From a virus (taxonomy: Duplodnaviria; Caudoviricetes), in IMG/VR virus record IMGVR_UViG_3300047554_000854, positions 1 to 53,918 of that record: a DNA stretch of 53,918 nucleotides. One strand, written 5' to 3'. The translations under genes were made by a program, and so were the position numbers. Position 1 is the first letter of the stretch; each line of letters starts with the position of its first letter. Under the pieces are notes generated by a model. It did no database searches. It was not told where the DNA came from and saw only the letters and a program-made list of their open reading frames with translations. Below are positions 9,927 to 27,479 of this stretch, piece by piece.

Positions 9927-10200
9927 GCCTCCCCCACAAGAACCCGATAGGGATTGAGCAACCGAGGAGTTTCCGTCCCCTTTCACCTCACCTGCTCTCC
10001 CTGTCGGTCAGAGAACCCCCGAGATTTCCTTCCCATTTCTCTCGGGGGTTTTCGCTTACCCCCGAGCCTGTATTCGTTTTTTCCTGAAGGCGGCAAGCAA
10101 CTTCTCATTAGTGTTGGAAAGTTTTACTGAAGGGGGTTGTTGACAACTTCGCACTAGTGGTGTAAGGTCTAGGTAAGGACGAAACGAAAGGACGGCAAGC

Positions 10201-10602
10201 GTGATTGACACAATGCCATTCCCATACCTCAACGAGTATGACCTAAACATCTGGATAGATGATGACGGATACTTACGAGCTAGTGCTTACCAACTCTGCC
10301 TTGATAAATCTATTGGGGTGGACGAACACGGAGAGCCTACCTACCAGCCTACGAACTACGGCTGTTCTGACGCATTTACTTTGGTCTGTATCCACGAACA
10401 CGAATACATTGGGATTGACAGGGACGAACTATACGCTCGCCTTGATGATGAGTGGGACACTATTACAGGGTTCTTGTCTGACCCTCGTGAGTGGAAGTCA
10501 GACTTCCCCGAGTTCTACGAGTTGGTCTGTGACGCAATCAAAGAGGAACTTATGGACGAGTTCGGAAACCTGAAGTATTACGAGGCTTGCCAACACGCCT
10601 AA
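10201..10602 (+). CDS. Hypothetical protein
   Basis: Promoter TTGACA(10140)/TAAGGT(10163), RBS GAAAGGA. Confidence 0.75.
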   Translation: MIDTMPFPYLNEYDLNIWIDDDGYLRASAYQLCLDKSIGVDEHGEPTYQPTNYGCSDAFTLVCIHEHEYIGIDRDELYARLDDEWDTITGFLSDPREWKSDFPEFYELVCDAIKEELMDEFGNLKYYEACQHA

Positions 10603-10668
10603 AAATGAACTTGACAACTTCTCACTAATCGTGGTAAGGTCTAAGTATCTCCTAGAAAGGGAAATGAA

Positions 10669-10953
10669 ATGGACGACAAAGAACTAGCCCTCTCGGCAAT
10701 CGTGCTGTTGGGCGTTACCATTGAGAGCCACACAGACATAGGGCTATCTACGCCTCTGTTCTATGACGCTCTTACTGGGGCAATCGAACTAGCACAGCAC
10801 CTCGGCATTGAGGAACTGACCACACGCCTACAATCTCTACAAATCGAAGTTGGCGAGATGAACCTAACTCTCGCCGAGAAAGCAAAGAAACTCGCCAGCG
10901 ACTTTGGCGACCTACACGAAGTATTGGAACAACTAGGTTCGGAGGAGAACTAA
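10669..10953 (+). CDS. Hypothetical protein
   Basis: Promoter TTGACA(10611)/TAAGGT(10635), RBS GAAAGGG. Confidence 0.8.
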   Translation: MDDKELALSAIVLLGVTIESHTDIGLSTPLFYDALTGAIELAQHLGIEELTTRLQSLQIEVGEMNLTLAEKAKKLASDFGDLHEVLEQLGSEEN

Positions 10954-12026
10954 TGCCAAACTGGGTTTACAACTATGTATCTATCTCTGGTAAGACAGAG
11001 GACTTGATTGCTTTTGCTAGGAAAGCAGAACAGCAACACGAAACTCAATGGCTCTCGGAGGAGTGGGTTCGCAACGAGGACGGAACTAACACTCGTATCC
11101 CCGAGGAGGAACGCAAGGTAGAGATAGAACTATCTGGCAAGAGCGACCTATCATTCTGGAACTTCATACGACCAACTGACGAGGAACTGCCTTACTACTT
11201 TGGGCACTTGGTCAAGGAGGAGGACAAGCCTGACCCTGACGCAACTTTGGACGAGCGTATGGCTAAGGCTATGTTGTTCTCTGGGTCTGGTTGGTATGAC
11301 TGGAACATACGCAACTGGGGTTGTAAGTGGGACGCTAGTGACGCAGAGTTGAGCACCGACCTTGCTGAACTAGACGGACACATAAACAACACCCTCTCCT
11401 ATCGGTTCTCTACGGCGTGGTCTGTTCCTCAACCTATCTTTGAGGCTATGGTCAAGCAACACCCCGAGTTGGACTTCGACTTTGAGAGCGAGGAGGAACA
11501 GGGCTGGGGCGTGAAGTTTACTTCGTCTGACGGCGAGGAGGACGGCGAGGAACGCTCGCTAATCGAAACCGAGAGTTGGGACATACCAGCAAGCCACGCC
11601 GACTATGTGGCGAGGGACAACATTGACGGCTGTGTTTGTAACTGGGGAGATGAGGAGGACGATTGGTTTGAGGATTGCCCTCGCCCTGAAAAGGACTTCT
11701 ATGTGGTCATTACCAAGACCTACCGAGTAACCACTCACTCTGCCGAGAACGCTTGGGAACTCGCACAGGACAACGACCCTGACGAGCAAATGGAACTCCT
11801 AGACGAAACTCAAATCTGGGTCAAGGGCGAGAACGGCGAGCGTCTGTATCCGACACTCGGGGACGGCGAGCCAACCGAGAAACTCTGTAACCACAGGTTC
11901 GTCCCTCGCTATGTCGCTGACGAGAACGGAGAGGGTTCTGTGTATTCAGGCGTGCTTGCTTGTGTGTTCTGTAACGAGGAACGAGCGAGCGAAACGGACG
12001 AGATTGTGACGGAGGTGAACAAATGA
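10953..12026 (+). CDS. DUF1281/YubB-like ferredoxin-fold phage protein
   Basis: MPNW.YN...WYDWNIRNWGCKWD...FSTAWSVP signature. Confidence 0.7.
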   Translation: MPNWVYNYVSISGKTEDLIAFARKAEQQHETQWLSEEWVRNEDGTNTRIPEEERKVEIELSGKSDLSFWNFIRPTDEELPYYFGHLVKEEDKPDPDATLDERMAKAMLFSGSGWYDWNIRNWGCKWDASDAELSTDLAELDGHINNTLSYRFSTAWSVPQPIFEAMVKQHPELDFDFESEEEQGWGVKFTSSDGEEDGEERSLIETESWDIPASHADYVARDNIDGCVCNWGDEEDDWFEDCPRPEKDFYVVITKTYRVTTHSAENAWELAQDNDPDEQMELLDETQIWVKGENGERLYPTLGDGEPTEKLCNHRFVPRYVADENGEGSVYSGVLACVFCNEERASETDEIVTEVNK

Positions 12027-12223
12027 GCAACCGAGTAATCAAGGTAGGTGTCACCTTTGAGTTCTACCCTGACGGAGAACACTCTGACCTGTTTGACGAG
12101 GAGGACACGCTGGACGAGATAATCGCCTACGCAAAGTCAATGACCTCCGAGGACATAGACCGCCTCGTGAAATACAACGAGGTCTGGGACGCACTCCAAG
12201 TGGAAGTCCTGACCGAGGAATAG
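12023..12223 (+). CDS. Hypothetical acidic protein
   Basis: ATGA overlap, GGAGG RBS. Confidence 0.75.
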   Translation: MSNRVIKVGVTFEFYPDGEHSDLFDEEDTLDEIIAYAKSMTSEDIDRLVKYNEVWDALQVEVLTEE

Positions 12224-12434
12224 ACCAACCCCCAGTAGAGGGTGACACCTGAGCAAGTGTTCTAAACTGCTCACCCAAACTTTAGCCACCTCTGTATTCG
12301 TTTTTTCCCCACGAAAAACTCGTTGGAAAATGGATTTGACATTAGAGAGCAGATGTGGTTCAATAGTTCTTGTCAGGTTCAGATAGCCTGATGAAACGCA
12401 AAGCCCAATGATACACGAGTAGAAAGTAAATCAA

Positions 12435-12809
12435 ATGGCAACTGCTATCAAGACAGCTGGACAGACAGCACAGGCAACACAGGCAGAGGCAGAGGTTCGT
12501 ATCTCTCCCAAAGCCCAGAAAGCGGTAAAGGCTCTCGCCTCTGCTCACGAGCAGGAGAAAGTCATTGACGCAATCATCAAGGAAAGTCGTGAGGCTATCC
12601 TCGCTGAACTCGGCAACGACACCAGCAAGTTTGGTGTGGACGCACGAGGCAAGCGTCTAGTCAAGGTTCAGGTCGTAATGCCCAAAGACCCTACTCGCTA
12701 CGACACAGCAGAGTTGGTCAAGTTCCTTGCCAAGACCCAGCCAGAAATCTTGGCTATGTTCAAGGCAGAGGACGCTAAGGCGACCACACGAGTTCTGACC
12801 CTCAACTAG
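12435..12809 (+). CDS. Hypothetical protein, paralog of 19626 and 32504
   Basis: Ala/Thr-rich N-terminus, helix ending ILAELG, D...L....PE motif. Confidence 0.8.
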   Translation: MATAIKTAGQTAQATQAEAEVRISPKAQKAVKALASAHEQEKVIDAIIKESREAILAELGNDTSKFGVDARGKRLVKVQVVMPKDPTRYDTAELVKFLAKTQPEILAMFKAEDAKATTRVLTLN

Positions 12810-13026
12810 GGTCAGACCCGAGGGGCGACAGAGAAACCCCCCTTTCGCTCTGTCGCCTCTCCCCAAAGCAAACGCTCTCTGGATAGATACTGCTACCTCT
12901 ATCCAGAGGGCGTTTCTTTTCACTCGGGCTGTATTCGTTTTTTCCCACGCCGAGTGTGCGAACGCCACGACTTTTGATTAGTGATTGGTTGTTGCGAAAT
13001 GTCTTAGGGTCTGGTAAGGTTTAGGT

Positions 13027-13494
13027 ATGGCAAAAGACAACTTGGCTCACTACTGCGAAATCTGTGGCTACACGCTACCAGAGGACGCTATTGAACCCTG
13101 CCCTTGTGTGAACAGACAGGACAGCGCGTTCTACACAGACGAGGCTGGACACGAGGTAGTTTGGTCTAGGTATGGCGAAGTTGCTTACCAAGTTATTCGT
13201 AATGGGGAAATGAAAATCCACTACACAGACCCCGAGGGAAAAGAACACACGATTAGATACACAGGCGACCTAGACGACTTGGGTATTGACACAGACGAGA
13301 AACTCTACGAGATGAACACGCTTGACGAGGAGAAATGGTCTTGGGTTCATAACTCTTGGTTTGAGGTATGGGACGCACAGGACGGGACTTTTGAGTTGGA
13401 CGAATACTACTCTGAACCTATTGACACACTTGACGAGGCTGTGGCTTATGCCTTAGAGTTACACGAGCAATACATCAAAGAGAGGACAAAGTAA
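13027..13494 (+). CDS. Hypothetical protein, leaderless
   Basis: TAAGGT at 13015, ATG at 13027. Confidence 0.8.
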   Translation: MAKDNLAHYCEICGYTLPEDAIEPCPCVNRQDSAFYTDEAGHEVVWSRYGEVAYQVIRNGEMKIHYTDPEGKEHTIRYTGDLDDLGIDTDEKLYEMNTLDEEKWSWVHNSWFEVWDAQDGTFELDEYYSEPIDTLDEAVAYALELHEQYIKERTK

Positions 13495-13785
13495 ATGCTT
13501 TACAGACACGCACTAGGAGAAGTTCTCCGAGAGGAACGCCACGCACAGGGTAAGACCCTACGCACGATTTCAGGCACAGGGCGTATCGCTCTGGGATACC
13601 TCTCCGAGATTGAGAGAGGCGACAAGGAGATTTCATCTGAAATCCTCGCTGGGGTTGCTGACGCTCTGGGACTACAAACCTCCGACATCATCATCAGGGC
13701 AGGTCTGCGTATGGCTGGGCTATTAGTTCCCGACACGGCAGAAACGCTACTTGACGAATACGCCGACCTTGTGGTAAGGTCTTAG
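13495..13785 (+). CDS. XRE-family HTH regulator, ClgR-like
   Basis: LGEVLREERHAQGKTLR...LGYLSEIERGDKEISSEIL matches the actinobacterial ClgR pattern. Confidence 0.8.
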   Translation: MLYRHALGEVLREERHAQGKTLRTISGTGRIALGYLSEIERGDKEISSEILAGVADALGLQTSDIIIRAGLRMAGLLVPDTAETLLDEYADLVVRS

Positions 13786-13809
13786 TAAGACATTCGGGAA
13801 GGAATGGAA

Positions 13810-13941
13810 ATGGAACAGACAACCTGCTACAAGTGCGACACCGAGATACAAGCACCAGAGAACGCGGTTCACCCGCTTTGCTCTGATTGCGACACCGCCT
13901 TTGACGATTGGTTCGCATTGGCTTTGGAGGGTAAGGCGTGA
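13810..13941 (+). CDS. Small zinc-finger protein, 43 aa (not in ORF track)
   Basis: MEQTTCYKC...LCSDC; RBS GGAAGG; GTGA overlap with next gene. Confidence 0.65.
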   Translation: MEQTTCYKCDTEIQAPENAVHPLCSDCDTAFDDWFALALEGKA

Positions 13942-14123
13942 GCAAACAGGTTTACTTTGTAGTCGCTGTGGATTTGGAAACAGGCGAGGTTGAGTTTGAT
14001 AACGACACCGCTGACGCTCGCTTCCCTGACGGACTACTCTGGGACGGCGAGGCTTGGCGAGCAGAAACCGAGGACGAGTTCCAAGAGGCTTACGCTAAGG
14101 TCAGACCGATACTTGATAACTAA
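13938..14123 (+). CDS. Hypothetical protein
   Basis: GGAGGG RBS, GTG start. Confidence 0.7.
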   Translation: MSKQVYFVVAVDLETGEVEFDNDTADARFPDGLLWDGEAWRAETEDEFQEAYAKVRPILDN

Positions 14124-14132
14124 ATAGACTTG

Positions 14133-14349
14133 CCTAGCACGGAAAACCCCGACGGTCGCCGAGGTGTTGGTGTGGGTATTCGGATACTAGTAAAGACGGA
14201 TACCTGCTGACCAACTGCCTTTTATGCTAGGGAAACCGACCGAGTATGTCGCTAAACTATGAAACGCTACACCAACGGCAATCCAGAAGTAATGGCGGAG
14301 TAACTCTCCGTATGAAAATGCGACCGAGGTTGTAGCGTTTCTCCTTTCT
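14133..14349 (+). ncRNA. Candidate structured non-coding RNA
   Basis: Helices CCTAGCA/TGCTAGG, GTTGGT/ACCAAC, GTGGGTATTCG/CGGATACCTGC, GAAACGCTACA/TGTAGCGTTTC; no credible ORF. Confidence 0.55.
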
Positions 14350-14491
14350 GGGGCGTGTATTCGTTTTTTCCCAGAAGAAAAATCTGAACCTGTCTAACTT
14401 CGCATTAGTGTTTTGATGTTGCGAAAATGTCCTAGCCTGTGGTAAGGTTGATTTGTTGTCGGAAAGGCTGGCAACAGAAAGGGATAGTCCA

Positions 14492-14974
14492 ATGGGGCTA
14501 GACATGTATTTAGAGGCTCGGAAGTATGTTTCGGGTTACGCACACAGACCTCTTGACGACCAGAACGAGTATGAGGAAACTCTGGCTCTAATGGGTCTGA
14601 CTAAGGCTGACTTCTCATCAGAGGCAAGCCCGTTTGGAAGTATCAGTTTGGGTGTCGCTTATTGGCGTAAGGCTAATCAGATACACGCTTGGTTCATCAA
14701 CAACCACGCACCAGAGGGCGTGGACGATTGCCGACCTTTCTTTGTGGGTGGCAAGGACGAACTACTTGTCCTACGAAACTTGTGTCAGGAAGTCTTAGAC
14801 GACCACGACAAGGCAGAGGAACTTCTACCTGTGGGCGAGGGCTTTTTCTTTGGGTCATACGAGTATGACGAGTATTACTTCTCTGACCTCACCAACACGA
14901 TTGAGCAGTTAGACCTACTCATCAAGAACCCGAAGTTTGATAACTTTGATTTTGTTTATCACGCAAGTTGGTAA
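14492..14974 (+). CDS. Conserved-type phage hypothetical protein
   Basis: MGLDMYL...YWRKANQIHAWF...GFFFGSYEYDEYY...Y.ASW; RBS GAAAGGG. Confidence 0.8.
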   Translation: MGLDMYLEARKYVSGYAHRPLDDQNEYEETLALMGLTKADFSSEASPFGSISLGVAYWRKANQIHAWFINNHAPEGVDDCRPFFVGGKDELLVLRNLCQEVLDDHDKAEELLPVGEGFFFGSYEYDEYYFSDLTNTIEQLDLLIKNPKFDNFDFVYHASW

Positions 14975-15156
14975 ACCCCTAAACTGAAAGACCCCTAGCG
15001 CACACTAGGGGTTTTTCTTTTGGCTGGGTATGTATTCGTTTTTTCCCGCAGCTCAAAAACGCGGGTTCAACTTCGCATTAGTATTTGCTTTTTGAATACA
15101 GGCGTGGTAGAGTGTAGGTATCAACAGGACGAAGCCAAGTAGTCCGAAAGGGAACA

Positions 15157-15534
15157 ATGTTCACAGAAACCATTACCGTTACAGGTTTGATTGCTACTAC
15201 GCCACGACACCTAGTTACGCAGGACGGCTTGCCGATTACCTCGTTCCGTCTAGCGTCAAGCAAGCGAACTTTCGACCGAGCCTCTATGGAGTGGAAAGAC
15301 GGAGATACCAATTGGTTCACCATCACTTCCTTCAAGAAACTCGCTATCAACGCCGCCAACAGCCTAAGCAAAGGCGAGCGCATTGTTGTAACAGGAACGC
15401 TTAGAGTGCGTGATTGGGACAACGGCGAGCGTTCTGGAACTTCCGTAGAAATCGAAGCCGACAGTATCGGACACGACTTATCGTGGGGAACCGCCACCTT
15501 TACACGAACCGTTCTCGTTCAGGACGCCGACTAG
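15157..15534 (+). CDS. ssb: Single-stranded DNA-binding protein (OB fold, short)
   Basis: ITVTG...FRLASS.R...W.DG.TNWF...LA.N...SL.KG.RIVV.G.L....W...EIEADSIG.DL. Confidence 0.9.
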   Translation: MFTETITVTGLIATTPRHLVTQDGLPITSFRLASSKRTFDRASMEWKDGDTNWFTITSFKKLAINAANSLSKGERIVVTGTLRVRDWDNGERSGTSVEIEADSIGHDLSWGTATFTRTVLVQDAD

Positions 15535-15537
15535 ACG

Positions 15538-15675
15538 GCGAGCCTAACGGCGTGGGTAGGTGAGCCTAACGGCTCGCCTACCTGCGCTCAACGGCAAGCC
15601 TGACGGCTTGCCTATGACCGACCATTGGCAAGCGTAACCGCTTGACAACAGGCAAGCCTAAGTGGTAGGCTTGCC
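15538..15675. repeat. Cluster of related palindromes with a GCC-T(A/G)AC-GGC-type core
   Basis: GTAGGTGAGCCTAACGGCTCGCCTAC, GGCAAGCCTGACGGCTTGCC, CAAGCGTAACCGCTTG, GGCAAGCCTAAGTGGTAGGCTTGCC. Confidence 0.7.
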
Positions 15676-15703
15676 CTAACCGCTACAACCGACAAGGACA
15701 GAA

Positions 15704-15949
15704 ATGACGACCGCTGAACTAACCGCTCTCGTGGAGAGCAAGACCGACAAGAGCAAGCAAGTAATCGCCCTCTACAACAAGGACGACCGCCTAGTAGGTG
15801 TCGTGAACGGATGGAGAGTTGCTGACGGAGTGATGGAGATGGACGCTACTATCAAGCGAGCCGTCTTGACCGCCGAACTATCGCCAGCCGAACTCTATGA
15901 GATTGACGACCAGATTGCCCGACTTCGGGATTTGAGAGGAACTCTCTAA
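15704..15949 (+). CDS. Hypothetical protein
   Basis: AAGGA RBS, terminator downstream. Confidence 0.75.
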   Translation: MTTAELTALVESKTDKSKQVIALYNKDDRLVGVVNGWRVADGVMEMDATIKRAVLTAELSPAELYEIDDQIARLRDLRGTL

Positions 15950-16113
15950 AAGCCTAGACCCGACCCCCGACATTTTGTTCGGGGGTTTTGGTTTTTCGGG
16001 AGTGTGTATTCGTTTTTTCCGTAGCCCGAAACTTTTTTGGTTTTGGTTCTTGACTTGTCTGTGGGTGCTGGTATTATGGGAAGTGTTGGAAACTCCAACG
16101 AGAAAGGGCAGTA

Positions 16114-16311
16114 ATGAAGTTTATGTTTCGTAGATTGCTACTAGGCGTAGTAATCGTTCCACTTATCGCTGTTGTCTATTTTGTGTTCTACGCTTTGTTA
16201 GTTGGTGGCGGTGCTGAACCAACAGCAACGCCTATCGAAGTTTGGAACAATGGACTTATGTTCGGCGTAGGGGTAACCCTAGTGTTCGCAGTATCGGCGG
16301 TGTTTGAGTAA
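16114..16311 (+). CDS. Small membrane protein
   Basis: Two hydrophobic segments; GAAAGGG RBS. Confidence 0.75.
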   Translation: MKFMFRRLLLGVVIVPLIAVVYFVFYALLVGGGAEPTATPIEVWNNGLMFGVGVTLVFAVSAVFE

Positions 16312-16514
16312 TGGCGTGGAAGTATGTAACTTTTCTAATCGCTTGCTACACGATTATTCTTTCTACGCTCTCCACGCTTAGGCAGTTTGAGAGTGGCGAA
16401 CTAGATAAAACGAGTTTGCTTTTTATGTGGCTACTCTCTCTTGCGTGGCTATTTGTTTCGCTAGTGCTACAAGTCGCAGACTTGCCACGAAAGCGAAAAA
16501 GACGCAGACGCTAA
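16311..16514 (+). CDS. Small membrane protein
   Basis: TAATG coupling; two hydrophobic segments, basic tail. Confidence 0.7.
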   Translation: MAWKYVTFLIACYTIILSTLSTLRQFESGELDKTSLLFMWLLSLAWLFVSLVLQVADLPRKRKRRRR

Positions 16515-16691
16515 CACGAATACGCTCGCAGAAATGCGAGCGTATTTTTTTTTGTCTAGGTGTGTATTCGTTTTTTCCCGAAGGCACGCCACAACAACAC
16601 ACGACTAATCCAATGTCGCAAAATGTCGTAGGGGTGCGATAAAATCTAAGTGTTGGTGAAATCGAAGTAATCAACAAGGAGAACGATACAG

Positions 16692-16925
16692 ATGCTTCAA
16701 GACGAAGTAATCGCACTACGCAACACGCTCAAAGCCTACAAGCGAGTAATCGCTGACCTAGAAAGTCAGGCAGACACCTACGAGCCAAACGCTCTGGATG
16801 AAACTCTGTCCAAACTCAACTATCGAGTTTGGGAGATTGAGAACATCTGGGGAGATGAGTTGGCGAAACTAGAAGCGTCTATGAAACGCCACCCTAGTCA
16901 CCCTGACTTTATGGGGTTCATCTAG
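16692..16925 (+). CDS. Hypothetical protein
   Basis: AAGGAG RBS in a box A cassette. Confidence 0.75.
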   Translation: MLQDEVIALRNTLKAYKRVIADLESQADTYEPNALDETLSKLNYRVWEIENIWGDELAKLEASMKRHPSHPDFMGFI

Positions 16926-17100
16926 AAACACAGCAAGGGGAACACGCTCGCAGAAATGCGGGCGTTTTCTTTTTACCCGAACACGAGTGGTGTATTCGTT
17001 TTTTCCGCCACACGAAACACGCTGGCAAATGGATTTGCGTTCAGGGCGGAACTATGCAATAATGGACTTGTTGCCGAAAGGGTCGGCACGAAAGGGAACT

Positions 17101-17418
17101 ATGAAAGAACTACCAATCTGCCCGAAGTGTTCGGGCTTTATTCCAAACAACGAAACCCCTGGGGCTTACTCTGGGGCTATCTCACGAGTAGATAACAAGA
17201 CTGAGATTTGCTCATCTTGCGGCACACAGGAAGCCCTAGACGCTTTCTTCGGCGAGCGAAACGAAGTAGAGCAAGCAGAAGACGAACTCTGGAACGCAAT
17301 CTTGAACTTCGCTAACAACACCGACACAACGCAATCCAGCGCACTTGCCGAAGATGTAAGCACGGCAATCATCAACCTAAAAAATGTTGTTCACCTAAGC
17401 AGAAAGGCAGGTGTCTAA
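17101..17418 (+). CDS. Zinc-ribbon hypothetical protein
   Basis: CPKC...GAISRVDNKTEICSSCG; RBS GAAAGGG. Confidence 0.75.
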   Translation: MKELPICPKCSGFIPNNETPGAYSGAISRVDNKTEICSSCGTQEALDAFFGERNEVEQAEDELWNAILNFANNTDTTQSSALAEDVSTAIINLKNVVHLSRKAGV

Positions 17419-17765
17419 TGGGAAACAGGTCTTCCATTGTTGTTGAGAGCGAGCGTTTCAAAGCGCCGATTACTCTCTATGGTCACTGGTCAGGCGCGGA
17501 AAACTTGGCGAGCGTGGCGAGCGTATTAGAGCGCACGGGCAGGGTAGGCGACCCGTCTTATCTCACGGCGCAACTCTTCTACGAGTTTGCCGTAGTGCGT
17601 GGCAAGTATGACGGCGAGTTGTCTTTCGGGATTGACGCTTTCGGCGGAACGCCAGACGAAGTAGATAAATGGATGGATGTGCCGACCATTGTAGTCAATG
17701 CCGATAACGGCACTTGGCGTTGGGCGATACCGCCAGAGCCAGCGGAAGAAGTCGTATTCGGGTAA
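17418..17765 (+). CDS. Hypothetical protein
   Basis: MGNRS...LYGHWSG; TAATG coupling. Confidence 0.8.
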   Translation: MGNRSSIVVESERFKAPITLYGHWSGAENLASVASVLERTGRVGDPSYLTAQLFYEFAVVRGKYDGELSFGIDAFGGTPDEVDKWMDVPTIVVNADNGTWRWAIPPEPAEEVVFG

Positions 17766-17979
17766 CCCCCTTTCCCCGAATACGAGTGGCGTGAGTTATC
17801 CGCCAAAACAGAACGGCAACCTTATCCCCTTTCGGTTGCCGTTTTGTTTTACCCTGTGGCGTATTCGTTTTTTCCTTACGCCGACAGATAACTTCTCATT
17901 AGTGTTGCGAAGTTGCGTAATGACGGCTCGCTATGGTAAACTCTTGGTATGGCGAAAGGCTCGCCAGAAAGGGACACAG

Positions 17980-18387
17980 ATGAAACTAGAAACAAGCATT
18001 TCGACAGGTTGTAACGGTTGCGAGTATTATGACGAGGACACCGATACTTACACCGAGGCGGACAGTTGCCAAGGGTATTGCTACGAAGATGCCGTTGAAG
18101 ACTACACCGAGAACCTGTTGAAACCTTGGCTAGAAGCCAAGGCGATTATGGCGGATAGTCCTGTTCGTATCCACGGCTCGGGTATGACTTGGCTACGCCG
18201 TTCAGGACACGCCGACACTTCGGCTCGCGCTATCTTGGACACACTTGCTATCAACGGTGACTTCACCATAAAAGCCGTCTATGAAGACGGCGAGTTGTCG
18301 TTCGTTCGCTACTCTCACGATGAACCGACAGGAGCGAGTTTCACCGTTGAGCCTATCTCGCTTGACGGAGAAACGGAGTGGGTGTGA
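17980..18387 (+). CDS. Hypothetical protein
   Basis: RBS GAAAGGG, ATG 17980, SHDEPTG motif. Confidence 0.75.
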   Translation: MKLETSISTGCNGCEYYDEDTDTYTEADSCQGYCYEDAVEDYTENLLKPWLEAKAIMADSPVRIHGSGMTWLRRSGHADTSARAILDTLAINGDFTIKAVYEDGELSFVRYSHDEPTGASFTVEPISLDGETEWV

Positions 18388-18494
18388 TGACCGAACCAAT
18401 GACCCTGACGGATGAGCAACTAGACGAGTTGATAGTGAGCCTATCGAACCGACTAGGGTTAGTGTTGGACACCGAACCTATCGAAGCGTTCTAA
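18387..18494 (+). CDS. Small protein, 35 aa (not in ORF track)
   Basis: TGATG coupling, ends just before a terminator. Confidence 0.5.
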   Translation: MTEPMTLTDEQLDELIVSLSNRLGLVLDTEPIEAF

Positions 18495-18671
18495 CCGAGA
18501 AACCCGACAACGAAAGTTGTCGGGTATTCTCTTGCTCGGCAAGCGTATTCGTTTTTTCCGCTACAACACCACACAAAAATAAAATACTAAATGGATTTGA
18601 CTTACACGACCATAGCCACTAAGATAGACTATGTAGCCAGAAAGTCTGGTTACAGAAAGGGGTTCTCCATT

Positions 18672-18986
18672 ATGGAAAACCAAACTCTAAATGGTGTCGA
18701 ACTCGCTACACTAGGCGACCTAGCCACCATGCTCGACATGAAGTATGTAACTGTTGTTGCTTGGCGTAATCGTTACAGCGACTTTCCAGCACCACTAATC
18801 ACGCTCAACGCTGGCGGAGAGCGACCACGACCTTTGTTTGACGCTAACGCAGTAAAGGCGTGGGCAGACGGGAAAGAAGTCCGAACTCGTGGCTACGCTG
18901 GCAAACTTGGAGCTAAGGTTCTGAACCTAGAAGCCACCAATCCAGAAGCGTTCGCTACGATTATGGAACTACTCAACGAGAAGTAG
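18672..18986 (+). CDS. AlpA/MerR-like HTH DNA-binding protein
   Basis: LGDLATMLDMKYVTVVAWRNRYSDFPAP...LFDANAVKAW. Confidence 0.7.
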   Translation: MENQTLNGVELATLGDLATMLDMKYVTVVAWRNRYSDFPAPLITLNAGGERPRPLFDANAVKAWADGKEVRTRGYAGKLGAKVLNLEATNPEAFATIMELLNEK

Positions 18987-19122
18987 CCACACGAAAGAAG
19001 TCCCCCGAGCAATCGGGGGATTTTCTTTTTTCACGGGGGTTGGCGAGTGTATTCGTTTTTTCCAGCACGACACGACTTTCTAAAATGGATTAGGTTTTTT
19101 GAAGTAATCGTGATAGACTTTA

Positions 19123-19432
19123 GGGGTAGCAGAGAAGTCCTAGGTTTCTCTAACTACTAGCGGGGAGTCGGCGAAGCAGACCTAGCGACATTACGGCGAA
19201 TCAGTATCCGAGGCCCTTGCGGAGTAGGGCAGAGCAGACATCTAGAAGGTCGGGTTGAACAGCGAGCCAGAACAGCGAGGAAGCACCAGCCGAGAGTGCG
19301 GGGTTACAACAGCCCGTAGGCATACGGGTTGGGTTGGCTGAGAGTCGCTCTCTCGGTGCGGGTTCGAATCCCGCTGACCTGCGAAAGTCCCCCGACTTTT
19401 TTTGCTCATACTTTCTTTGGCGGGGGACTTTC
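19123..19432 (+). ncRNA. Candidate ncRNA with a tRNA-like 3' domain, in its own cassette
   Basis: Box A and promoter upstream, no ORF; T-arm GCGGG-TTCGAAT-CCCGC (19358-19374), AGGTCG/TGACCT acceptor-like helix, several further helices. Confidence 0.65.
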
Positions 19433-19625
19433 CAATTTTTCCGACACGACAGCGTGTATTCGTTTTTTCCGCTGGACTATCTCCGTTATCAAAATGTTAC
19501 CTAATAACACGCCTAGGATTTGCTAAATGTCTATCGCATAGGGTAAGATTACTAATGTAATCGAAGTTCAAAAGCGGAAGTCCCGCCAGAGAGATTACCT
19601 AGACCTCACGAAAGGGGTTGGTAGT

Positions 19626-19976
19626 ATGGCTAAGTCAGCCACTACCCCAGCCGTAGCAACCGCTACCGCTGTCGTTACCGAGAACACTCGCAAGGTGTCC
19701 AAGGTTCTAGTTGCCAAGGTGGCCGAAATGGCACACCTACGCACCGAGATTGCCCGCTTGGAAAAGTTGGCTAAGTCGTTGCGTGCCGAAGTGCTTGACG
19801 AAGTCGGCACTGACCCTGTTGTGCTAATCCACAACAACATCAAGGTTGCGAAGTTGTCGGTCGTAATCACCGAGCGTGCTGACCTTGACGCTCTACGCAA
19901 GGCGTTCCCTGACGCTTGGAGTGCCGTCAAATACGACAGCCCTAGCGTCAAGGTGTCGCTAATCCACGAAGTCTAG
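19626..19976 (+). CDS. Hypothetical protein, paralog of 12435 and 32504
   Basis: LRAEVLDEVG...DLDALRKAFPDAW. Confidence 0.8.
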   Translation: MAKSATTPAVATATAVVTENTRKVSKVLVAKVAEMAHLRTEIARLEKLAKSLRAEVLDEVGTDPVVLIHNNIKVAKLSVVITERADLDALRKAFPDAWSAVKYDSPSVKVSLIHEV

Positions 19977-20177
19977 GCGACAGCCACCGAGCCAGCCAGC
20001 CCGAAAGGGTTGGCTGGTTTTGGCGTTCCCGATACGGCAGGTCGGGGAGTGTATTCGTTTTTTCCGCAGGGACACGACACTAAAAGAAATAACTTGCGTT
20101 GTCGGTGGATAGGAGTATAATGGAGTATGTAGTCAGGAAGCCAAGGTGGTTGAGGATTACACGAAAGGGCAATCAAG

Positions 20178-20549
20178 ATGCTTGATTGGAACGCAGTAGA
20201 AGACGCAGTAGAGAACGCAAGGGGCATTGCGTTTGAGAACTGCCACAAGATTTATGTTCTTATGGACACTTACCAAGTTGCCCTAATGCGTGAATACGAA
20301 TACGAGTTTGTAATCACCGACCAAGAGCAGACACCGAGCGAAATGCTCGCCACGCTAAAAGAGTGGTTTGAGCAGTCTTGCCCGCTACGCTTCATTGAAG
20401 CAGTAGCCACTAACCACGAAGACCCGAACGCTGGCTTTACCACGCTGATTGGTCAGTTTGAGCAAGACGATTGCGAAGACTGTGGTGAGCGCGGTTGCGC
20501 TGGGGTTTGCGCTGATGACGACTACGAAGACGAAGACGAAGACGAGTAG
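20178..20549 (+). CDS. Hypothetical protein
   Basis: CHKIYVLMD...WFEQSCPLRFI; RBS GAAAGGG. Confidence 0.8.
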   Translation: MLDWNAVEDAVENARGIAFENCHKIYVLMDTYQVALMREYEYEFVITDQEQTPSEMLATLKEWFEQSCPLRFIEAVATNHEDPNAGFTTLIGQFEQDDCEDCGERGCAGVCADDDYEDEDEDE

Positions 20550-20742
20550 CCCTAATCACGAAACGCCCGCTGGAAAATCGGCGGGCGTTTTCTTTTGCGC
20601 TGGCGAACACGGAAGCCCGCGGAAAAAACGAATACTCCTGGCGCGACACGGGGGCCAATGGATTTGACTTCCGCTCGAAAATGCTGTAAAGTCTATCTTG
20701 TAATCAACAACGATTACCTAAGCAAAGGGAAGCACCGAGATT

Positions 20743-20985
20743 ATGAACCTACTACAAGCCAGACTTCTAGTTCACAGTCTAGAAATGGAAATCAAGTTCG
20801 AAGGCAAGTTCCAGATGACCCGAGAGCCAGCAATGCGGGCACTTGGTCGCCTATGTGGCTTTGACGCATACGCCACCTTCGGCAAGGGCGTAAAGGGTCG
20901 CCAGAAGGCTCTGGATTGGTTGAACGAAACCATTACCGAGAACGAAAAGATTTACGGCTTAGAGCCAGGCGAAACCTTCGCCTAA
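20743..20985 (+). CDS. Hypothetical protein
   Basis: Box A cassette, terminator downstream. Confidence 0.75.
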   Translation: MNLLQARLLVHSLEMEIKFEGKFQMTREPAMRALGRLCGFDAYATFGKGVKGRQKALDWLNETITENEKIYGLEPGETFA

Positions 20986-21127
20986 GCCAACACGATAGCC
21001 CCCGCAGAAATGCGGGGGTTATTTTGTTGCCGAAAAATTTTTTAGGGGTGTATTCGTTTTTTCCGCTGAAAAAGCTGATACGGCGTGGCACTGGCAAAAT
21101 GTCGGGGGTATAGAGTATTATTTAGTT

Positions 21128-21346
21128 ATGGCAAACAACTACTCAAAACTGATGAAGTCAGTTATCGCTCTGGCTATCCAACATGGTTGGACAGTCAGCA
21201 TGACGAACAAGGGGCACTACAAGTTCGTATCACCAGACAAGACGCAACCCGTCATACACCTAAGCGGAACGCCTAGCGACCACATGACCTACATGTGTAG
21301 CATGGCGCAACTACGCAGACACGGGCTACCCGTTCCCAAGAAGTAA
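21128..21346 (+). CDS. HicA-like toxin-fold protein, leaderless
   Basis: GWTV....GHYKF..P...V......TPSD pattern with a His at the HicA catalytic position. Confidence 0.65.
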   Translation: MANNYSKLMKSVIALAIQHGWTVSMTNKGHYKFVSPDKTQPVIHLSGTPSDHMTYMCSMAQLRRHGLPVPKK

Positions 21347-21534
21347 TCAAGGGGAACGCCGATACTGAAAAGTGTCGGCGTTCTTTTTTGCTCGGCGTAG
21401 ATGTATTCGTTTTTTCCGCTGTAAAAAGTTTTTCGTGTTTCGATTTGCTTTTGTCTATGGTGTATGCTACGATGTATGTATCAGCACTTCAGCTGATACT
21501 TTGATAACTACATAGAGAAAAGGGGTTGAGTCTT

Positions 21535-21867
21535 ATGACTGAACAACAAACTTATCTTCCACGACCATACGAAGTGGGGGACGGCGACTTCGTAGATGTA
21601 GTCTGCGAGGACTGTGCTGTAAAGTTTGCCGAGGAGCGAGGACTGGTCTGGCGTGGCAACACTTCTCACCACTCGTTCACCGAGGACTCCGAGGAAAAGG
21701 GTTCATACGCTTCGTGCATTGAATCATACGCCCTTGGGGACGCTGACGCTCCCTACTCGTGTTGTGGGGTCTACCTAGACACGAACCTAACCCGAGACGG
21801 TTTTGACTACTTGGAGGAACACGACTTCCCCGAGTGGGTCAAGGAACTTTACGGGGCAACCAAGTAG
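21535..21867 (+). CDS. Hypothetical Cys-containing protein
   Basis: AAAAGGGG RBS, CEDC. Confidence 0.75.
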   Translation: MTEQQTYLPRPYEVGDGDFVDVVCEDCAVKFAEERGLVWRGNTSHHSFTEDSEEKGSYASCIESYALGDADAPYSCCGVYLDTNLTRDGFDYLEEHDFPEWVKELYGATK

Positions 21868-22049
21868 CGTGAAGAACCTACACCCTTCGGGGTGTGGGTT
21901 CTTTTTTTTTGCGGGGAAGTATGTATTCGTTTTTTCCGCAGAATAAAATAAATACGAAATAGATTTGACTTTGTGTTGGGGCTATGCTACGCTGTATGTA
22001 TCAGCGATTTCCACTCGGGAAATACTGAATAGTGCCTAAGGGGGCAACT

Positions 22050-22292
22050 ATGAGCTCACCAGCTCACACCAGCGGTTCAACCGCCGTTCCGTTCACAGAG
22101 CGTCAAATGAACGCTATCCACTCAGCGTTGCTAAGTGAAGTCTTCAACTTGCGTGGACTTCTTGAAGCATCCACCGACTCGCTCGTTGCAAACTACTTGC
22201 ACTGCGAACTTGCGGAAGCAGTCCAGACTGAAGCGGACTTCCGTAACTTCTGGCGTAACGCAATCACCGCTGACGCACTAGGGGGTGAGTAG
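22050..22292 (+). CDS. Hypothetical protein
   Basis: AAGGGGG RBS, ATG 22050. Confidence 0.75.
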   Translation: MSSPAHTSGSTAVPFTERQMNAIHSALLSEVFNLRGLLEASTDSLVANYLHCELAEAVQTEADFRNFWRNAITADALGGE

Positions 22293-22509
22293 TTTGACTG
22301 CGTTCATTTACAGACTGCGTGACCCGAAGTTCGCACCGTTCATCACCGCCCGTATCTTGGGGGAGTATCACTACCCCTATAAGGGCTTGACCTACTTCGA
22401 AATCGAAATCACGGATAGCCGTAAGCCAGTCGGTCTCCAGACTTCAATCACGCCTATTTGGGGCGGTAAGCACTTCCGTGAAGTTTTCGAGATTGACGGA
22501 CTAGCCTAA
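22285..22509 (+). CDS. Hypothetical protein
   Basis: Overlapping GTG start, terminator downstream. Confidence 0.65.
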   Translation: MSSLTAFIYRLRDPKFAPFITARILGEYHYPYKGLTYFEIEITDSRKPVGLQTSITPIWGGKHFREVFEIDGLA

Positions 22510-22899
22510 CCCGCTATCACCAAAAGCACCCCCGCCAAAGTGCGGGGGTTCTTTTTTGCCCCCGTCAGCGACCCGCTGGCGGGTTTTCAGCGTCTAGGTG
22601 GAGTGATTACCCGTCTAGACACTTCGACCCGTCTACGGGGCGCTGGTGGCGTTCTAGGGCATTGACCTACAAAACACGGGGGGGTAGATGACGCTTTTCG
22701 GGGGTGCGAGCTGGTGTATTCGTTTTTTCCCGCAACTAGACACGATTGCCCTAGGATTTTGTATTTTCGAATAATCGTGCTAAGATGTAGGTATCAAGTA
22801 AAACGCTTGATACTGCTGGTCATCCATCAGGTAAGAACGGGATAGGGATAGATGGCTTCTCCCCGACACCTAGCAGTTCCATCAAAGTAAAGGGCAACT

Positions 22900-23109
22900 A
22901 TGAGTTCGATTCAACTAGTCCCCGCATACGGGCGGGACTACAAAAGTCAGCGTGAAGTTCAAGAAGCGTGGGACGCTAATAAGGACTTTTGGACTGCCGA
23001 CATCATCAATGGCTATGGTGCGGCAACCAATAAGCAGGACTGCGACTCAATGGGTCTGCGTGTGGTTATTCGCTACGCACGCGGTATGAAACTCTACGCA
23101 GTCAAGTAA
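22900..23109 (+). CDS. Small phage hypothetical protein
   Basis: LVPAYGRDYKS...W...KDF; AAAGGG RBS. Confidence 0.8.
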   Translation: MSSIQLVPAYGRDYKSQREVQEAWDANKDFWTADIINGYGAATNKQDCDSMGLRVVIRYARGMKLYAVK

Positions 23110-23270
23110 AAGCCACGGGGATAGGTGTTTCCAATCACGCCTATCCCCGTTTTACTTTTGCCGCAGGGTGTATTCGTTTTTTCCTCTGGCGGGAACACGA
23201 TTGCGGGGTGATTTGATTTTGTCGGTGGTATCGTGTAAACTTGCCTTATCAAGTTGAAAGGGGTAGCCAA

Positions 23271-23717
23271 ATGGCAACCATCGAAACATACTCACCAGAC
23301 CACCGACCACAGCGTAAGCAGGAGTTCCTGTTGCTTACCGAGTTCGAACCTAAGATGGCGTTCGAAACTCACGAACTACTTGCGGGCGCGATTATCGCCA
23401 ACCCTGCGGGATTTGGCATTGACGGACTAGTGCTACGCGTAGAGGACTACTTCGGTAGCGTCAGCGCGGTCTATGTTCCAGAGGACTGCGAGCGCGAGCA
23501 CTGCGAATGCTCTTGGGCGCTGTATGAGTCAAAACGCCGTAGTATCGCTCGCTCACTCGCCGAAGGCGCTTCGTCTGTGACTTGGGTAGGCGGTCAAATC
23601 TACACGGAACCACTTCCCGAACTTGCGGTTGAGGATGTAGAGCGCGACCCCGAACACTGCGAACAGAGCGCCGAGTTTGAAACCGAGTGGGTGGAAATCT
23701 ACACGCCGACCCGATAG
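23271..23717 (+). CDS. Hypothetical protein
   Basis: GAAAGGGG RBS, ATG 23271. Confidence 0.75.
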   Translation: MATIETYSPDHRPQRKQEFLLLTEFEPKMAFETHELLAGAIIANPAGFGIDGLVLRVEDYFGSVSAVYVPEDCEREHCECSWALYESKRRSIARSLAEGASSVTWVGGQIYTEPLPELAVEDVERDPEHCEQSAEFETEWVEIYTPTR

Positions 23718-23895
23718 CGACTAGCGCGAGACCCCTGCCGATTTCGGCGGGGGTTTTGCTCTATCCCCGCGCCCGCCGAGTGTATTCGTTTTTTCCGTGC
23801 GACACGCTGGACACGGGGGCGATTAGGTTATTTGCTGGTTATGGTGTATACTAGAATCACAACAGGGCGAAAACGAAGTAGCCCAAAGGGGCATT

Positions 23896-24144
23896 ATGAA
23901 CATCTACGAAATAATCGAATCCTACGGCTTTCCTATGTTCGGTAACGAGGAACTAGGCACGCTAATCACTTGGAACGGCTCTAACACTTTCCTATGGTGG
24001 AACAGGGACTACTCGGTAGGCAACTGGACTAACTCGGACATTCGCACGAACTACGACCCTATGACGCTTCAGCAAGCAGAGGCAGAGGCTAAACGCTGGT
24101 TCGCTCAGGAAGTCGAAGCACTAGACGAAGCCCTAGACGCTTAG
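23896..24144 (+). CDS. Hypothetical protein
   Basis: AAAGGGG RBS. Confidence 0.8.
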   Translation: MNIYEIIESYGFPMFGNEELGTLITWNGSNTFLWWNRDYSVGNWTNSDIRTNYDPMTLQQAEAEAKRWFAQEVEALDEALDA

Positions 24145-24305
24145 TTAGAAGTCGAAGCAAGCCCCCGCAGAAATGCGGGGGTTTTGTTTTGCTCGGCGTG
24201 CTGGTAGGTGTATTCGTTTTTTCCCGAGACAGACACGGCGGGTGTGGGCGACTTGACTTTACTTCCTGGTCGTGGTAGACTTTCCTTGAAGGAAAGGAGG
24301 ACACA

Positions 24306-24434
24306 ATGCTTTCATACGAGTTCACTGGAACTTACACCCTCATTCTCGAGGCGGAGTCTGCTGAGGCTGCTCAGCAGGAGGCGGAGGACATCCTGGGCAA
24401 TACCGTCTGGGACTACACCATCGAGGAGGCGTAA
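24306..24434 (+). CDS. Small acidic protein, 42 aa (not in ORF track)
   Basis: Perfect GAAAGGAGG RBS; MLSYEFTGTYTLILEAESAEAA... Confidence 0.75.
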   Translation: MLSYEFTGTYTLILEAESAEAAQQEAEDILGNTVWDYTIEEA

Positions 24435-24627
24435 GCCACCAGCAGGAAGCCCCTGCCCCGAAAGGGGTGGGGGTTTTCTACTACCTGGTAGTAAAACCAG
24501 CGTATTCGTTTTTTCCTGCGCGAGCGACACAATGCGGAATGGATTTGACTTTGAAAATAAAACCTGGTAGACTCTACCTTGTAATCAAAAGATTACATCA
24601 GGGCAACACCAAACAAAGGGGAGCAAG

Positions 24628-24780
24628 ATGATTGTTCGGGTTCGTAAACTAAAGGGCGAAGGCCACCACGATTTCTATGACTGCGTTGAGTGCGGTCGCC
24701 GTTGGAAGTCAAGCGACAAAAAGATTGGACACACCCAGGTCGCGTGCGCACGATACAGGAAGCGCGTATACGGCTGGTAG
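24628..24780 (+). CDS. Small Cys/His protein, 50 aa (not in ORF track)
   Basis: AAAGGGG RBS; CVECGRRW...H...C. Confidence 0.7.
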   Translation: MIVRVRKLKGEGHHDFYDCVECGRRWKSSDKKIGHTQVACARYRKRVYGW

Positions 24781-24983
24781 CCAACCTGGCGAGAACCTGG
24801 AAGCAGAGCGCTTCCAGGTTTTCTTTTTGCCTAATGCGAAGTTGTGCGCCAGGTGCGTATTCGTTTTTTCCGTAGGGTGGACACGATACTAAATGGATTT
24901 GACTTGGGGGATAATCTATGGGAGAATAGAGGGGTAGTCAGGAGAGCAAGGGGCTTGAGGGCTACGAAAGGGAGTGGTCAGAA

Positions 24984-25232
24984 ATGACTAACGCAGTATT
25001 CGTTCTCACCGCCACCTCGCAGGGCGAGCGTGGACAGGCAGGACACAAGAAGGTCTACGAGATTATCGTAGAAGGCAACTGGGTAACTCTACGCTGGGGC
25101 AAGGCGGAAGAGATGACCCGACAGACGCAACGCAAGTGGTTCACGAACTCAAACCTCGCCCTCAACTTCGCACGAGAGAAGAAGTGGGCGAAGGTCGATA
25201 AGGGTTATGTAGTGGCTTACCAAGCACTCTAA
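24984..25232 (+). CDS. WGR-domain protein
   Basis: KVYEI....V.LRWGK......K.F....A......K..K..KGY. Confidence 0.7.
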   Translation: MTNAVFVLTATSQGERGQAGHKKVYEIIVEGNWVTLRWGKAEEMTRQTQRKWFTNSNLALNFAREKKWAKVDKGYVVAYQAL

Positions 25233-25467
25233 CCCCCGAAAGCCCAGCGGGGTTATTGCCCCCCTTTCGCCCCGCTGATGAGAAGCCCGCCAGTTCCCCC
25301 TACTGGCGGGTTTCGCTTTTCTCTGGACACTCAGGGCGTATTCGTTTTTTCCCTAGCGACACGCTTGGTCGTGGCGTGATTTGACTTGGCTTTGAAAATC
25401 CTGTAAGATTACTAATGTAATCAGGAAGCCAAGGGGGCGGAGGGTTACGGAAAGGGTAGGGGTTCCA

Positions 25468-26907: not shown

Positions 26908-27116
26908 AAGTGTAGCTACACTTTCAGCGAGAGCCTCCCGCCACGGCGGGGGGTTCTTGCGTTTTTCGGTTGCTGGTTAGTAATCGGAAAAAACGAATAC
27001 CTGAACCCCGCCCCGACACGCCGAGGATTAGGTGATTTGGGAAATCTATGGTAACCTGGTTATGTAACCAGGACGGCAGATAGCAAGAGGGTTACTTGAA
27101 AGGGGATAGAAGTCTT

Positions 27117-27479
27117 ATGACTACTATTCAAATCTCGGTTGAAGTTTCGGACGAGGTCATCGACCAGGTCATCGACTCGGCTGGCTACTACATTGACTAC
27201 TGGGCAACCAAAGGTCAGCAGGACACCGAGGCCAAGACCTATAAGGTCTGGCTGGACGAAGAGGCTCGTGAAGAGCGTGGCGAGAAGAGCGTAACGCTCA
27301 CCTACGCCGACCTCGCTCTCGCTGGCGAGAAGTTGCTCACGGGCAGGGTCAAGGTTCGCTCGGACATTCGTGAGGCTCTCTCCGCTGGGTTCATCGCTGG
27401 GGATGCTGGCTCCATTGACGGCGAGGTGGCCGATGTTGTGGTTCAGGTTGCTATCTTCGGGGACATTATCTTCGGTTAG
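27117..27479 (+). CDS. Hypothetical protein
   Basis: GAAAGGGG RBS; D...AD.VVQVAIFGDIIFG C-terminus. Confidence 0.8.
   Translation: MTTIQISVEVSDEVIDQVIDSAGYYIDYWATKGQQDTEAKTYKVWLDEEAREERGEKSVTLTYADLALAGEKLLTGRVKVRSDIREALSAGFIAGDAGSIDGEVADVVVQVAIFGDIIFG

Follow-up and report, generated by a model that had tools for sequence, protein, structure and literature searches.

Hairpins with conserved C-rich loops behind the genes of an uncultured actinophage: candidate anti-Shine-Dalgarno elements in 3' untranslated regions

We analysed a 53,918-nucleotide (nt) stretch of viral DNA (Duplodnaviria; Caudoviricetes; positions 1 to 53,918 of IMG/VR record IMGVR_UViG_3300047554_000854), hereafter the window, with a focus on a family of hairpins with C-rich loops that follow its genes. 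Genes for a portal protein, a large terminase and an endolysin were identified in the window, which is a contig in its entirety, together with those for an AAA ATPase and a VWA protein. Parts of the phage are contained in 20 DNA sequencing runs from 8 named studies, and the listing includes no RNA run. Among named phages, the nearest to the window is DSL-LC01 (129,469 bp), an uncultured Actinomycetia phage with which it shares synteny and a portal protein 74% identical, and the IMG/VR contig G001 (125,776 bp) is collinear with it at approximately 70–80% nucleotide identity. Given the kinship with the ~129-kb DSL-LC01 and the collinearity with G001, the window therefore represents about 40% of an actinophage genome of approximately 126–129 kb. 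For DSL-LC01, which originates from freshwater, its authors predict an actinobacterial host of the class Actinomycetia (PMC10611076). From approximately 10 to 35 kb, the window is made of small-gene cassettes, in which a short gene and its GAAAGGG(G) ribosome-binding site are accompanied by a 5' hairpin, a sigma-70-like promoter, a 15-nt repeat and a terminator. Many of the other terminators in the window carry unrelated GAAA-type loops.

An earlier note on this DNA had described hairpins with anti-Shine-Dalgarno loops after genes at 9944–25310, and every loop that it quoted was found in the sequence at the place given. The motif common to these loops, CCCCTTTC, marks seven sites on the + strand, five of which lie inside that range and two (33365 and 33403) outside it. 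All seven stand behind + strand stop codons and before or within terminators, the transcript ends being deduced from the sequence. The placement after genes holds throughout, with the correction that the 17826 hairpin doubles as an intrinsic terminator and that most of the hairpins belong to two-hairpin units, the second C-rich loop being that of the terminator. The elements are listed below.

9945–10006, + strand: site 1 hairpin A, directly after the stop codon of the VWA gene (9926); long interrupted stem with GGATTGAGCA...GCTCTCC as its middle part.
9968–9985, + strand: apical loop of site 1 hairpin A, containing GTTTCCGTCCCCTTTC.
10016–10054, + strand: site 1 hairpin B, an intrinsic terminator (stem 10016–10024 / 10040–10048, then TTTTCG) with a pyrimidine-rich loop at 10025–10039.
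12820–12861, + strand: site 2 hairpin, a 14-bp stem with loop AAACCCCCCTTTCG (12834–12847), after gene 12435–12809; a separate terminator comes next.
17752–17785, + strand: site 3 hairpin, loop TAACCCCCTTTC (17763–17774); its 5' arm overlaps the stop codon of gene 17418–17765.
17805–17856, + strand: site 4 hairpin, a 17-bp stem with loop TTATCCCCTTTC (17822–17833) and then a T run; terminator of the site 3/4 cassette.
25245–25277, + strand: site 5 hairpin A, stem CAGCGGGG/CCCCGCTG and loop TTATTGCCCCCCTTTCG, after the WGR-domain gene 24984–25232.
25285–25315, + strand: site 5 hairpin B, a terminator with loop TTCCCCCTA (25294–25302), then TTTCG.
33351–33382, + strand: site 6 hairpin, loop TTATCCCCTTTC (33361–33372), identical to the site 4 loop.
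33389–33418, + strand: site 7 hairpin, loop AATGTTCGCCCCTTTCTC.
33426–33458, + strand: intrinsic terminator closing the site 6/7 unit.

The seven + strand copies of CCCCTTTC (9977, 12839, 17767, 17826, 25261, 33365 and 33403) compare to 0.61 expected from 200 second-order Markov simulations, an excess of approximately 11-fold. On both strands together, 17 copies were observed vs 2.06 expected, and none of 100 shuffles reached 17. Unconstrained folding of 71-nt segments placed all seven + strand copies in the apical loop of a hairpin. Under a stricter rule, which required the 8 nt to be fully unpaired and the closing stem to be contiguous over at least 5 bp, five of the seven copies passed, compared to 40 of 3000 random segments (1.3%) and 26 of 2000 segments drawn from the 120 nt before the cassette repeat. 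The copy at 9977 failed because its upper stem, atop a long hairpin, has only 4 bp, and the copy at 17767 because two weak pairs are predicted within its loop. These results confirmed the enrichment of the motif in loops after genes that had been proposed for this DNA. The 6-mer CCTTTC was neither enriched nor depleted in the window (15 observed vs 15.07 expected), and no depletion of anti-Shine-Dalgarno-like words was seen in its coding sequence at the 6-mer level.

The loops follow a consensus of approximately UUAYC4-6UUUC, whereas the stems of the seven hairpins are unrelated in sequence; the loops at 17822 and 33361 are identical. A T run follows the G+C-rich stem of site 4 (17805–17856), of the B hairpins of sites 1 and 5, and of the terminator at 33426–33458. 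The hairpins starting at 9945, 12820, 17752, 25245, 33351 and 33389 are followed by other sequence, such that six of the seven CCCCTTTC hairpins have no T run after the stem.

Conservation of the loops alongside divergence of the stems was found to hold across relatives as well as within the window. In G001, the site 1 loop is identical to that of the window, and the site 2 orthologue, with loop CAGTTATCCCCTTTCAC, keeps CCCCTTTC on a partly changed stem and is the terminator there. At site 5, an identical 15-nt loop is carried by three different stems in the window, G001 and the relative L052. Sites 3/4 are absent from G001, which has a unit resembling sites 6/7 with other stems. The three-hairpin layout seen at site 3 is also present in L143 and L140, and the site 4 hairpin has its GCAACC-loop-GGTTGC core in common with L140 (16697) and L143 (20331). 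Furthermore, the relatives contain many more hairpins with loops of the TTAYCCCC(C)TTT(C) type, often as tandem pairs arranged like sites 3/4 (L142, L143, L146 and L149).

With the VWA protein as query, 12 loci were retrieved from IMG/VR (47–60% identity; 9 of them distinct), and in all 12 the VWA gene is directly followed by two hairpins. Across these loci, GGATTGAGCA...GCTCTCC is conserved in the middle part of hairpin A, whose apical loop is C-rich, and the loop of terminator B is C-rich in 11 of the 12, the exception being L139. Plain MAFFT alignments, in which the 3' arm was misaligned by one column, yielded no more than the terminator or an alternative pairing with RNAalifold; the structure was therefore given by hand to a two-sequence covariance model built on the window and G001 copies. 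This model detected the element in 11 of 11 distinct sources, with scores from 139 down to 15 bits. It also gave weaker matches to the site 5 units (32.7 bits in L052, 23.5 in the window and 18.3 in G001), to the site 2 units (19.9 and 11 bits) and to two of the tandem pairs (16.8 and 9.9 bits). Among the 11 VWA-linked rows of the model-fitted alignment, 258 of 276 cells hold standard pairs, and 18 of the 27 pairs show compensatory changes on both sides. Taken at the sequence level, these comparisons indicate that the hairpins form a genuine family of structured RNA elements in which the loop sequence is under selection. No C-rich-loop hairpin was found behind the VWA-like gene of the cultured Microbacterium phages Pumpernickel and A3Wally, and the family seems confined to an uncultured freshwater clade.

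We observed that the loops are exact complements of the GAAAGGG(G) ribosome-binding sites of the phage, as had been claimed for them. Ten copies of CCCCTTTC lie on the - strand and read GAAAGGGG on the + strand. Nine of these are ribosome-binding sites located 7–13 nt before the ATG of a + strand open reading frame (ORF), and the tenth (24460) is part of the stem-loop of a GAAA-loop terminator. The window loops complement 9–11 nt of such sites. The sites and initiation regions concerned are the following.

18655, 19610, 23256, 25986, 27098, 29307, 29682, 30846 and 33953, + strand: the nine GAAAGGGG ribosome-binding sites.
27098–27116, + strand: ribosome-binding site GAAAGGGGATA of gene 27117–27479, which with 11 nt offers the TTATCCCCTTTC loops of sites 4 and 6 their longest complementary stretch.
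6456–6469, + strand: translation-initiation region of gene X (6470–6949), in which GGACGGAAAC (6456–6465) is complementary to the site 1 loop.
6973–6986, + strand: initiation region of the AAA_5 ATPase gene (6987–8006; Pfam AAA_5), in which GGACGGAAACT (6973–6983) complements the site 1 loop perfectly over 11 nt.

Besides CCCCTTTC, the site 1 loop holds the string GTTTCCGTCC, the exact complement of the ribosome-binding site and spacer of two genes in the very operon that site 1 terminates. The match extends over 11 nt at the AAA ATPase gene (6973) and 10 nt at gene X (6456); an 11-nt match to this loop was found in none of the 95 other initiation regions and with 3 of 2000 shuffled loops. The site-1 orthologue of DSL-LC01 matches the 5' untranslated region (5'UTR) of the VWA gene over 13 nt (0 of 211 other regions). 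Those of L139, L147 and L148 match the VWA ribosome-binding site over 15 nt (0 of 38 other regions), 13 nt (1 of 49) and 12 nt (1 of 45), respectively. None of 2000 shuffled loops equalled the match in any of these four genomes. The site 1 loop and its target have therefore changed together in four loop versions, with 11–15 contiguous nt complementary in each. Such co-variation between a loop and the initiation regions of its own operon is predicted by RNA–RNA pairing, and would not be by a fixed protein site or a plain terminator. At site 5, 8 nt of the loop (CGAAAGGG) are complementary to the site of its own gene.

Furthermore, GTCCTTT loops are found where AAGGAC sites are common (22 of 70 in DSL-LC01, 4 of 24 in L139), and CCCTTTCTAAA loops where TTTAGAAAGGG sites occur (L147 and L148). 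In these sequences, the flavour of the loop tracks that of the ribosome-binding sites of the lineage. Base-pair rules give a C4 loop a perfect match with GGGG and a mismatch at the A of GAAAGGAG, a site that the earlier note had called host-type; this agrees with the possible preference for phage sites that the note had put forward.

Our preferred interpretation, to which we assign a probability of roughly 60%, is that the hairpins are anti-Shine-Dalgarno seeds located in 3' untranslated regions (3'UTRs) and pairing with phage ribosome-binding sites in cis or in trans. The hairpins would be functional RNA elements at the 3' untranslated ends of sense-strand phage transcripts, each lying between a stop codon and an intrinsic terminator or being the terminator itself. 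A stable stem would keep the pyrimidine loop single-stranded, so as to offer it to the G-rich ribosome-binding region (GAAAGGGG and the bases that follow) of phage mRNAs. The pairing could occur within one mRNA, from its 3'UTR to its 5' region, or through a stable 3' fragment acting on other molecules. It would compete with binding of the 30S subunit, and the duplex would probably be exposed to double-strand nucleases, resulting in feedback on translation or in its progressive damping. In the operon of gene X, the AAA ATPase and the VWA protein, the site 1 unit would target the operon's own initiation regions and thereby feed back on its translation, while the cassettes acted on by the generic TTAYC4-6TTTC loops would be those with GGGG-type sites. 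As the clearest target is the element's own operon, the data point to 3'UTR-to-5' feedback as much as to a distributed network acting in trans. Pairing in cells, repression rather than stabilisation of the target, action in cis or in trans, and timing are all features that we infer from the sequence.

Several observations weigh against this interpretation. The antisense action claimed in the earlier note is partly supported, by the co-variation of site 1 with its targets, whereas at sites 2–7 the complementarity is generic (9–11 nt, mostly the Shine-Dalgarno sequence itself). In G001, the site 1 loop complements the initiation regions of gene X and the AAA gene over only 9 nt, as did 2 of 173 other regions and 18 of 2000 shuffled loops. 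Likewise, five of the 11 site-1 orthologues (L140, L143, L142, L146 and L149) match the initiation regions of their operon over only 6–9 nt, no better than other genes or shuffled loops do. The sites of G001 and of L140/L143 are mostly of the GGGAA type, yet their loops are still C4-6. Conserved loop bases outside the Shine-Dalgarno complement (the UUA and UAUUG prefixes) are unexplained by Shine-Dalgarno pairing alone and therefore leave room for a protein-binding role. The co-varying lineages are few and partly related. Moreover, the stem covariation was counted on an alignment fitted to the structure of the model, which favours that structure, and since window/G001, L147/L148 and possibly DSL-LC01/L139 are related pairs, the independent events are fewer than the alignment rows.

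C-rich seeds complementary to the Shine-Dalgarno sequence are already established for translation control in Gram-positive bacteria (6C, RsaE, RNAIII and the icaR 3'UTR). In Staphylococcus aureus, the UCCCCUG motif of the icaR 3'UTR is described as pairing with the Shine-Dalgarno sequence of its own mRNA, blocking initiation and forming an RNase III substrate, with cis or trans action left open (PMC3868564). The phage elements share with icaR a C-rich motif in a 3'UTR complementary to the ribosome-binding region of the same transcript. Site 1 fits this description best, its own-transcript complement measuring 11–15 nt in the window, DSL-LC01, L139, L147 and L148, and 6–9 nt in L140, L143, L142, L146 and L149. 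Unlike in icaR, the phage motif is presented in the apical loop of a conserved, covarying hairpin adjoining a terminator, and there are many such hairpins per genome. They further differ in that they are encoded by a phage, the transcript is polycistronic, the system is actinobacterial and the complement of 11–15 nt includes spacer bases.

The C-rich loops of the 6C small RNA (sRNA) are reported to pair with G-rich ribosome-binding sites, either through loop–loop contacts or with single-stranded RNA, and to need no chaperone for this (PMC6486639). Two adjacent hairpins with C-run loops, as in 6C (RF01066), are present at window sites 1, 3/4, 5 and 6/7 and in the tandem pairs of L142, L143, L146 and L149, and the host phylum predicted for the phage is the same. 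However, the phage loops carry a UUUC extension that completes the Shine-Dalgarno complement, and the elements are 3'UTR parts of protein-coding cassettes, whereas 6C is one conserved chromosomal gene. Compared to the Rfam covariance model of 6C, which has a gathering cut-off of 47 bits, the only match was that of site 5 hairpins A and B, at 28.9 bits and an E-value of 7.6. No 6C was present among the 11, 15 and 12 weak Rfam matches at sites 1, 6/7 and 3/4, respectively, nor among the 13 Rfam matches in L142, L146 and L149. A genome search for 6C matched none of three records; it was insensitive, as none of 14 control genomes, Corynebacterium glutamicum included, exceeded the cut-off. We thus rejected membership in the Rfam 6C family, site 5 falling below the cut-off and the other units giving no match. 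By analogy, the elements resemble 6C and icaR in their logic and are not shown to belong to the 6C family.

Other parallels are looser. The UCCC-motif sRNAs of Firmicutes (RNAIII, RsaE/RoxS) are described as binding Shine-Dalgarno regions rapidly through C-rich single-stranded motifs and as preventing formation of the initiation complex (PMC3868564). The phage loops are also C-rich and complementary to Shine-Dalgarno sequences, and both sequences and hosts are unrelated; the RsaE matches in Rfam (13.7 and 11.6 bits vs a cut-off of 79) are noise. In Bacillus subtilis, a 2025 preprint reports that pyrimidine-rich anti-Shine-Dalgarno-like 8-mers pair with a ribosome-binding site that lies hundreds of nt upstream of them, with decay promoted and initiation inhibited (PMC12697547). 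Those 8-mers are engineered substitutions, and natural genes are depleted of such sequences; those of the phage are kept by selection and presented on a hairpin.

The 6C-like layout makes it conceivable that the RNAs act mainly on the host, as phage copies, by architecture, of the actinobacterial sRNA, complementarity to phage sites being secondary. We consider this improbable while giving it some weight: the highest-scoring Rfam match in the window is indeed 6C (25241–25318, covering the full model), 6C is reported to repress dnaB and panD via its loops (PMC6486639), and the predicted host class is Actinomycetia (PMC10611076 and portal relatives). Nevertheless, this match lies far under the cut-off, none was obtained at sites 1, 3/4 and 6/7 or in the tandem pairs of L142, L146 and L149, and it is with phage operon sequences that the site 1 loop co-varies. 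A protein might instead recognise the loops, which would then be its binding sites or decoys; candidates are RNA-binding proteins of the phage or the host, nucleases and factors recognising the pyrimidine 3' end of 16S rRNA. Such a role would account for the conservation of whole loops of 12–15 nt, including UUAY and UAUUG prefixes that pairing with the Shine-Dalgarno sequence does not need, and for that of the internal GGATTGAGCA...GCTCTCC part of site 1 in sequence, beyond what pairing alone requires. We nonetheless find it rather unlikely, as a fixed site is not expected to give rise to versions, GTCCTTT or CCCTTTCTAAAAG, with matches of 12–15 nt to initiation regions in the operon to which it belongs; no candidate protein emerged, and the genes upstream are without RNA-binding domains.

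Ordinary terminators or 3'-end-stabilising hairpins whose loop sequence has no function would also be found at 3' ends, as all these elements are. Intrinsic terminators are represented by site 4, by each hairpin B and by the site 2 orthologue of G001, with a G+C-rich stem and a T run at site 4 and in all B units. Terminator function does not constrain the loop, as illustrated by the many GAAA-type loops of the other terminators in the window; in the CCCCTTTC hairpins, the loops are kept to the base while the stems drift, and most of these hairpins have no T run. Together with the excess of CCCCTTTC on the + strand, in loops only, and with the loop–target co-variation, this makes the simple terminator explanation very unlikely. 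Finally, since the loops read GAAAGGGG on the - strand, they could be ribosome-binding sites, or relics thereof, of opposite-strand genes, and a 55-amino-acid ORF with a TTG start (9961–9794) begins 15 nt past the site 1 motif. None of the eight - strand AAAGGGG copies, however, has a start codon within 3–15 nt that opens at least 25 codons, and in the three relatives examined, the 55 codons of the site 1 ORF are reduced to 34 (G001) or to 4 (L143 and L140); the terminator T runs are also on the + strand. The want of usable start codons and the decay of this ORF therefore argue that these are not opposite-strand genes, and we rejected this explanation for practical purposes.

Other partners for the loops were considered alongside the ribosome-binding sites. 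Kissing of the 3' loops with GAAAGG hairpins in 5'UTRs was not supported, as folds gave small GAAA-type loops with most of the AAAGG in stems. A pseudoknot with adjacent upstream sequence was likewise set aside, CGAAAG being found just upstream at site 5 only and not at sites 1 and 2. The gene next downstream of site 1 was rejected as a target of its loop because this gene differs among relatives. Separately, three cassettes (24933–24983, 25410–25467 and 20120–20177) share a 5'UTR hairpin immediately preceding the ribosome-binding site, with a stem of the GTAGTC/GCTAC type and AAGGGG within its purine-rich loop. This hairpin is conserved in G001 and L052 and is a possible partner, by its sequence, for the C-rich loops. 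A 16-bp perfect hairpin with the C-rich loop CAGTCCTCTCCCCAGC was also observed outside the cassette region (2627–2674), just upstream of gene 2732–3661.

The cassette that ends with sites 6/7 has a further feature of its own.

33336–33344, + strand: extended -10-like promoter element TGcTATAAT, 6 nt before hairpin 6.

A consensus promoter scan called no -35/-10 pair at 33336–33344; sites 6/7 may, on this weak indication, form a stand-alone small RNA transcribed from the element. Within 32981–33134 of the same cassette, an ATG at 32994 lies 6 nt past TAGGCT, the -10-like element of a sigma-70-like promoter, and its position suggests that the 46-codon small gene starting there is leaderless.

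The cassette region is also rich in repeats. The 15-mer GTATTCGTTTTTTCC was found at 43 places with at most 2 mismatches vs 0.15 expected, between 5717 and 36514 and with 36 copies on the + strand (e.g. 10070–10084, 12931–12945 and 25338–25352). Each copy has a terminator on one side and, on the other, the promoter of the small-gene cassette that comes next, and relatives carry variants. Contigs from other metagenome runs show cassette replacement with break points adjoining GTATTCGTTTTTTCC copies (joints 24547>24852, 27044>27490 and 31471>31966). The repeat could serve recombination at cassette boundaries or be bound by a regulator. In DSL-LC01 (L118), an intergenic region (31400–31760) has five copies of a different, GCGTGACCGTGAGC-like repeat where the clade of the window has the 15-mer. 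Directly after a terminator, the window contains five 9-mers of the TTATCCACA / TGTGGATAA type in both orientations within 55 nt (27514–27568), which we take to resemble DnaA boxes. Approximately 16 tandem 8-nt units (36253–36388) are followed by several iteron-like repeats of ~21 nt (36428–36603). This array (36253–36603) lies at the turn of the cumulative GC skew, where the orientation of genes and repeats changes, and is by these features a possible replication origin.

A full-text literature search, which was not exhaustive, retrieved no description of a phage with a multi-copy family of conserved C-rich-loop, anti-Shine-Dalgarno hairpins in its 3'UTRs. A bolder extension of our interpretation, which is tentative and on balance unlikely, is that this freshwater actinophage clade has a genome-wide riboregulatory layer. 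Five transcription units in 54 kb, and more copies per relative, would end in two-hairpin RNAs that act in trans like 6C, are tuned to the G-rich sites of the phage and evolve with them. With the accumulation of these stable 3' fragments, they would time the shut-off of early cassettes and feed back on the AAA/VWA operon, and, given their resemblance to 6C, they might seize part of the host 6C regulon. If the anti-Shine-Dalgarno interpretation is true, these phages would provide natural pairs of co-evolving loops and ribosome-binding sites, and material on 3'UTR-to-5' and chaperone-free loop pairing in Actinobacteria. Complementarity of a hairpin loop to the ribosome-binding flavour of the phage itself would then serve as a simple annotation signature, and large actinophages would use RNA-level feedback on their AAA/VWA operon.

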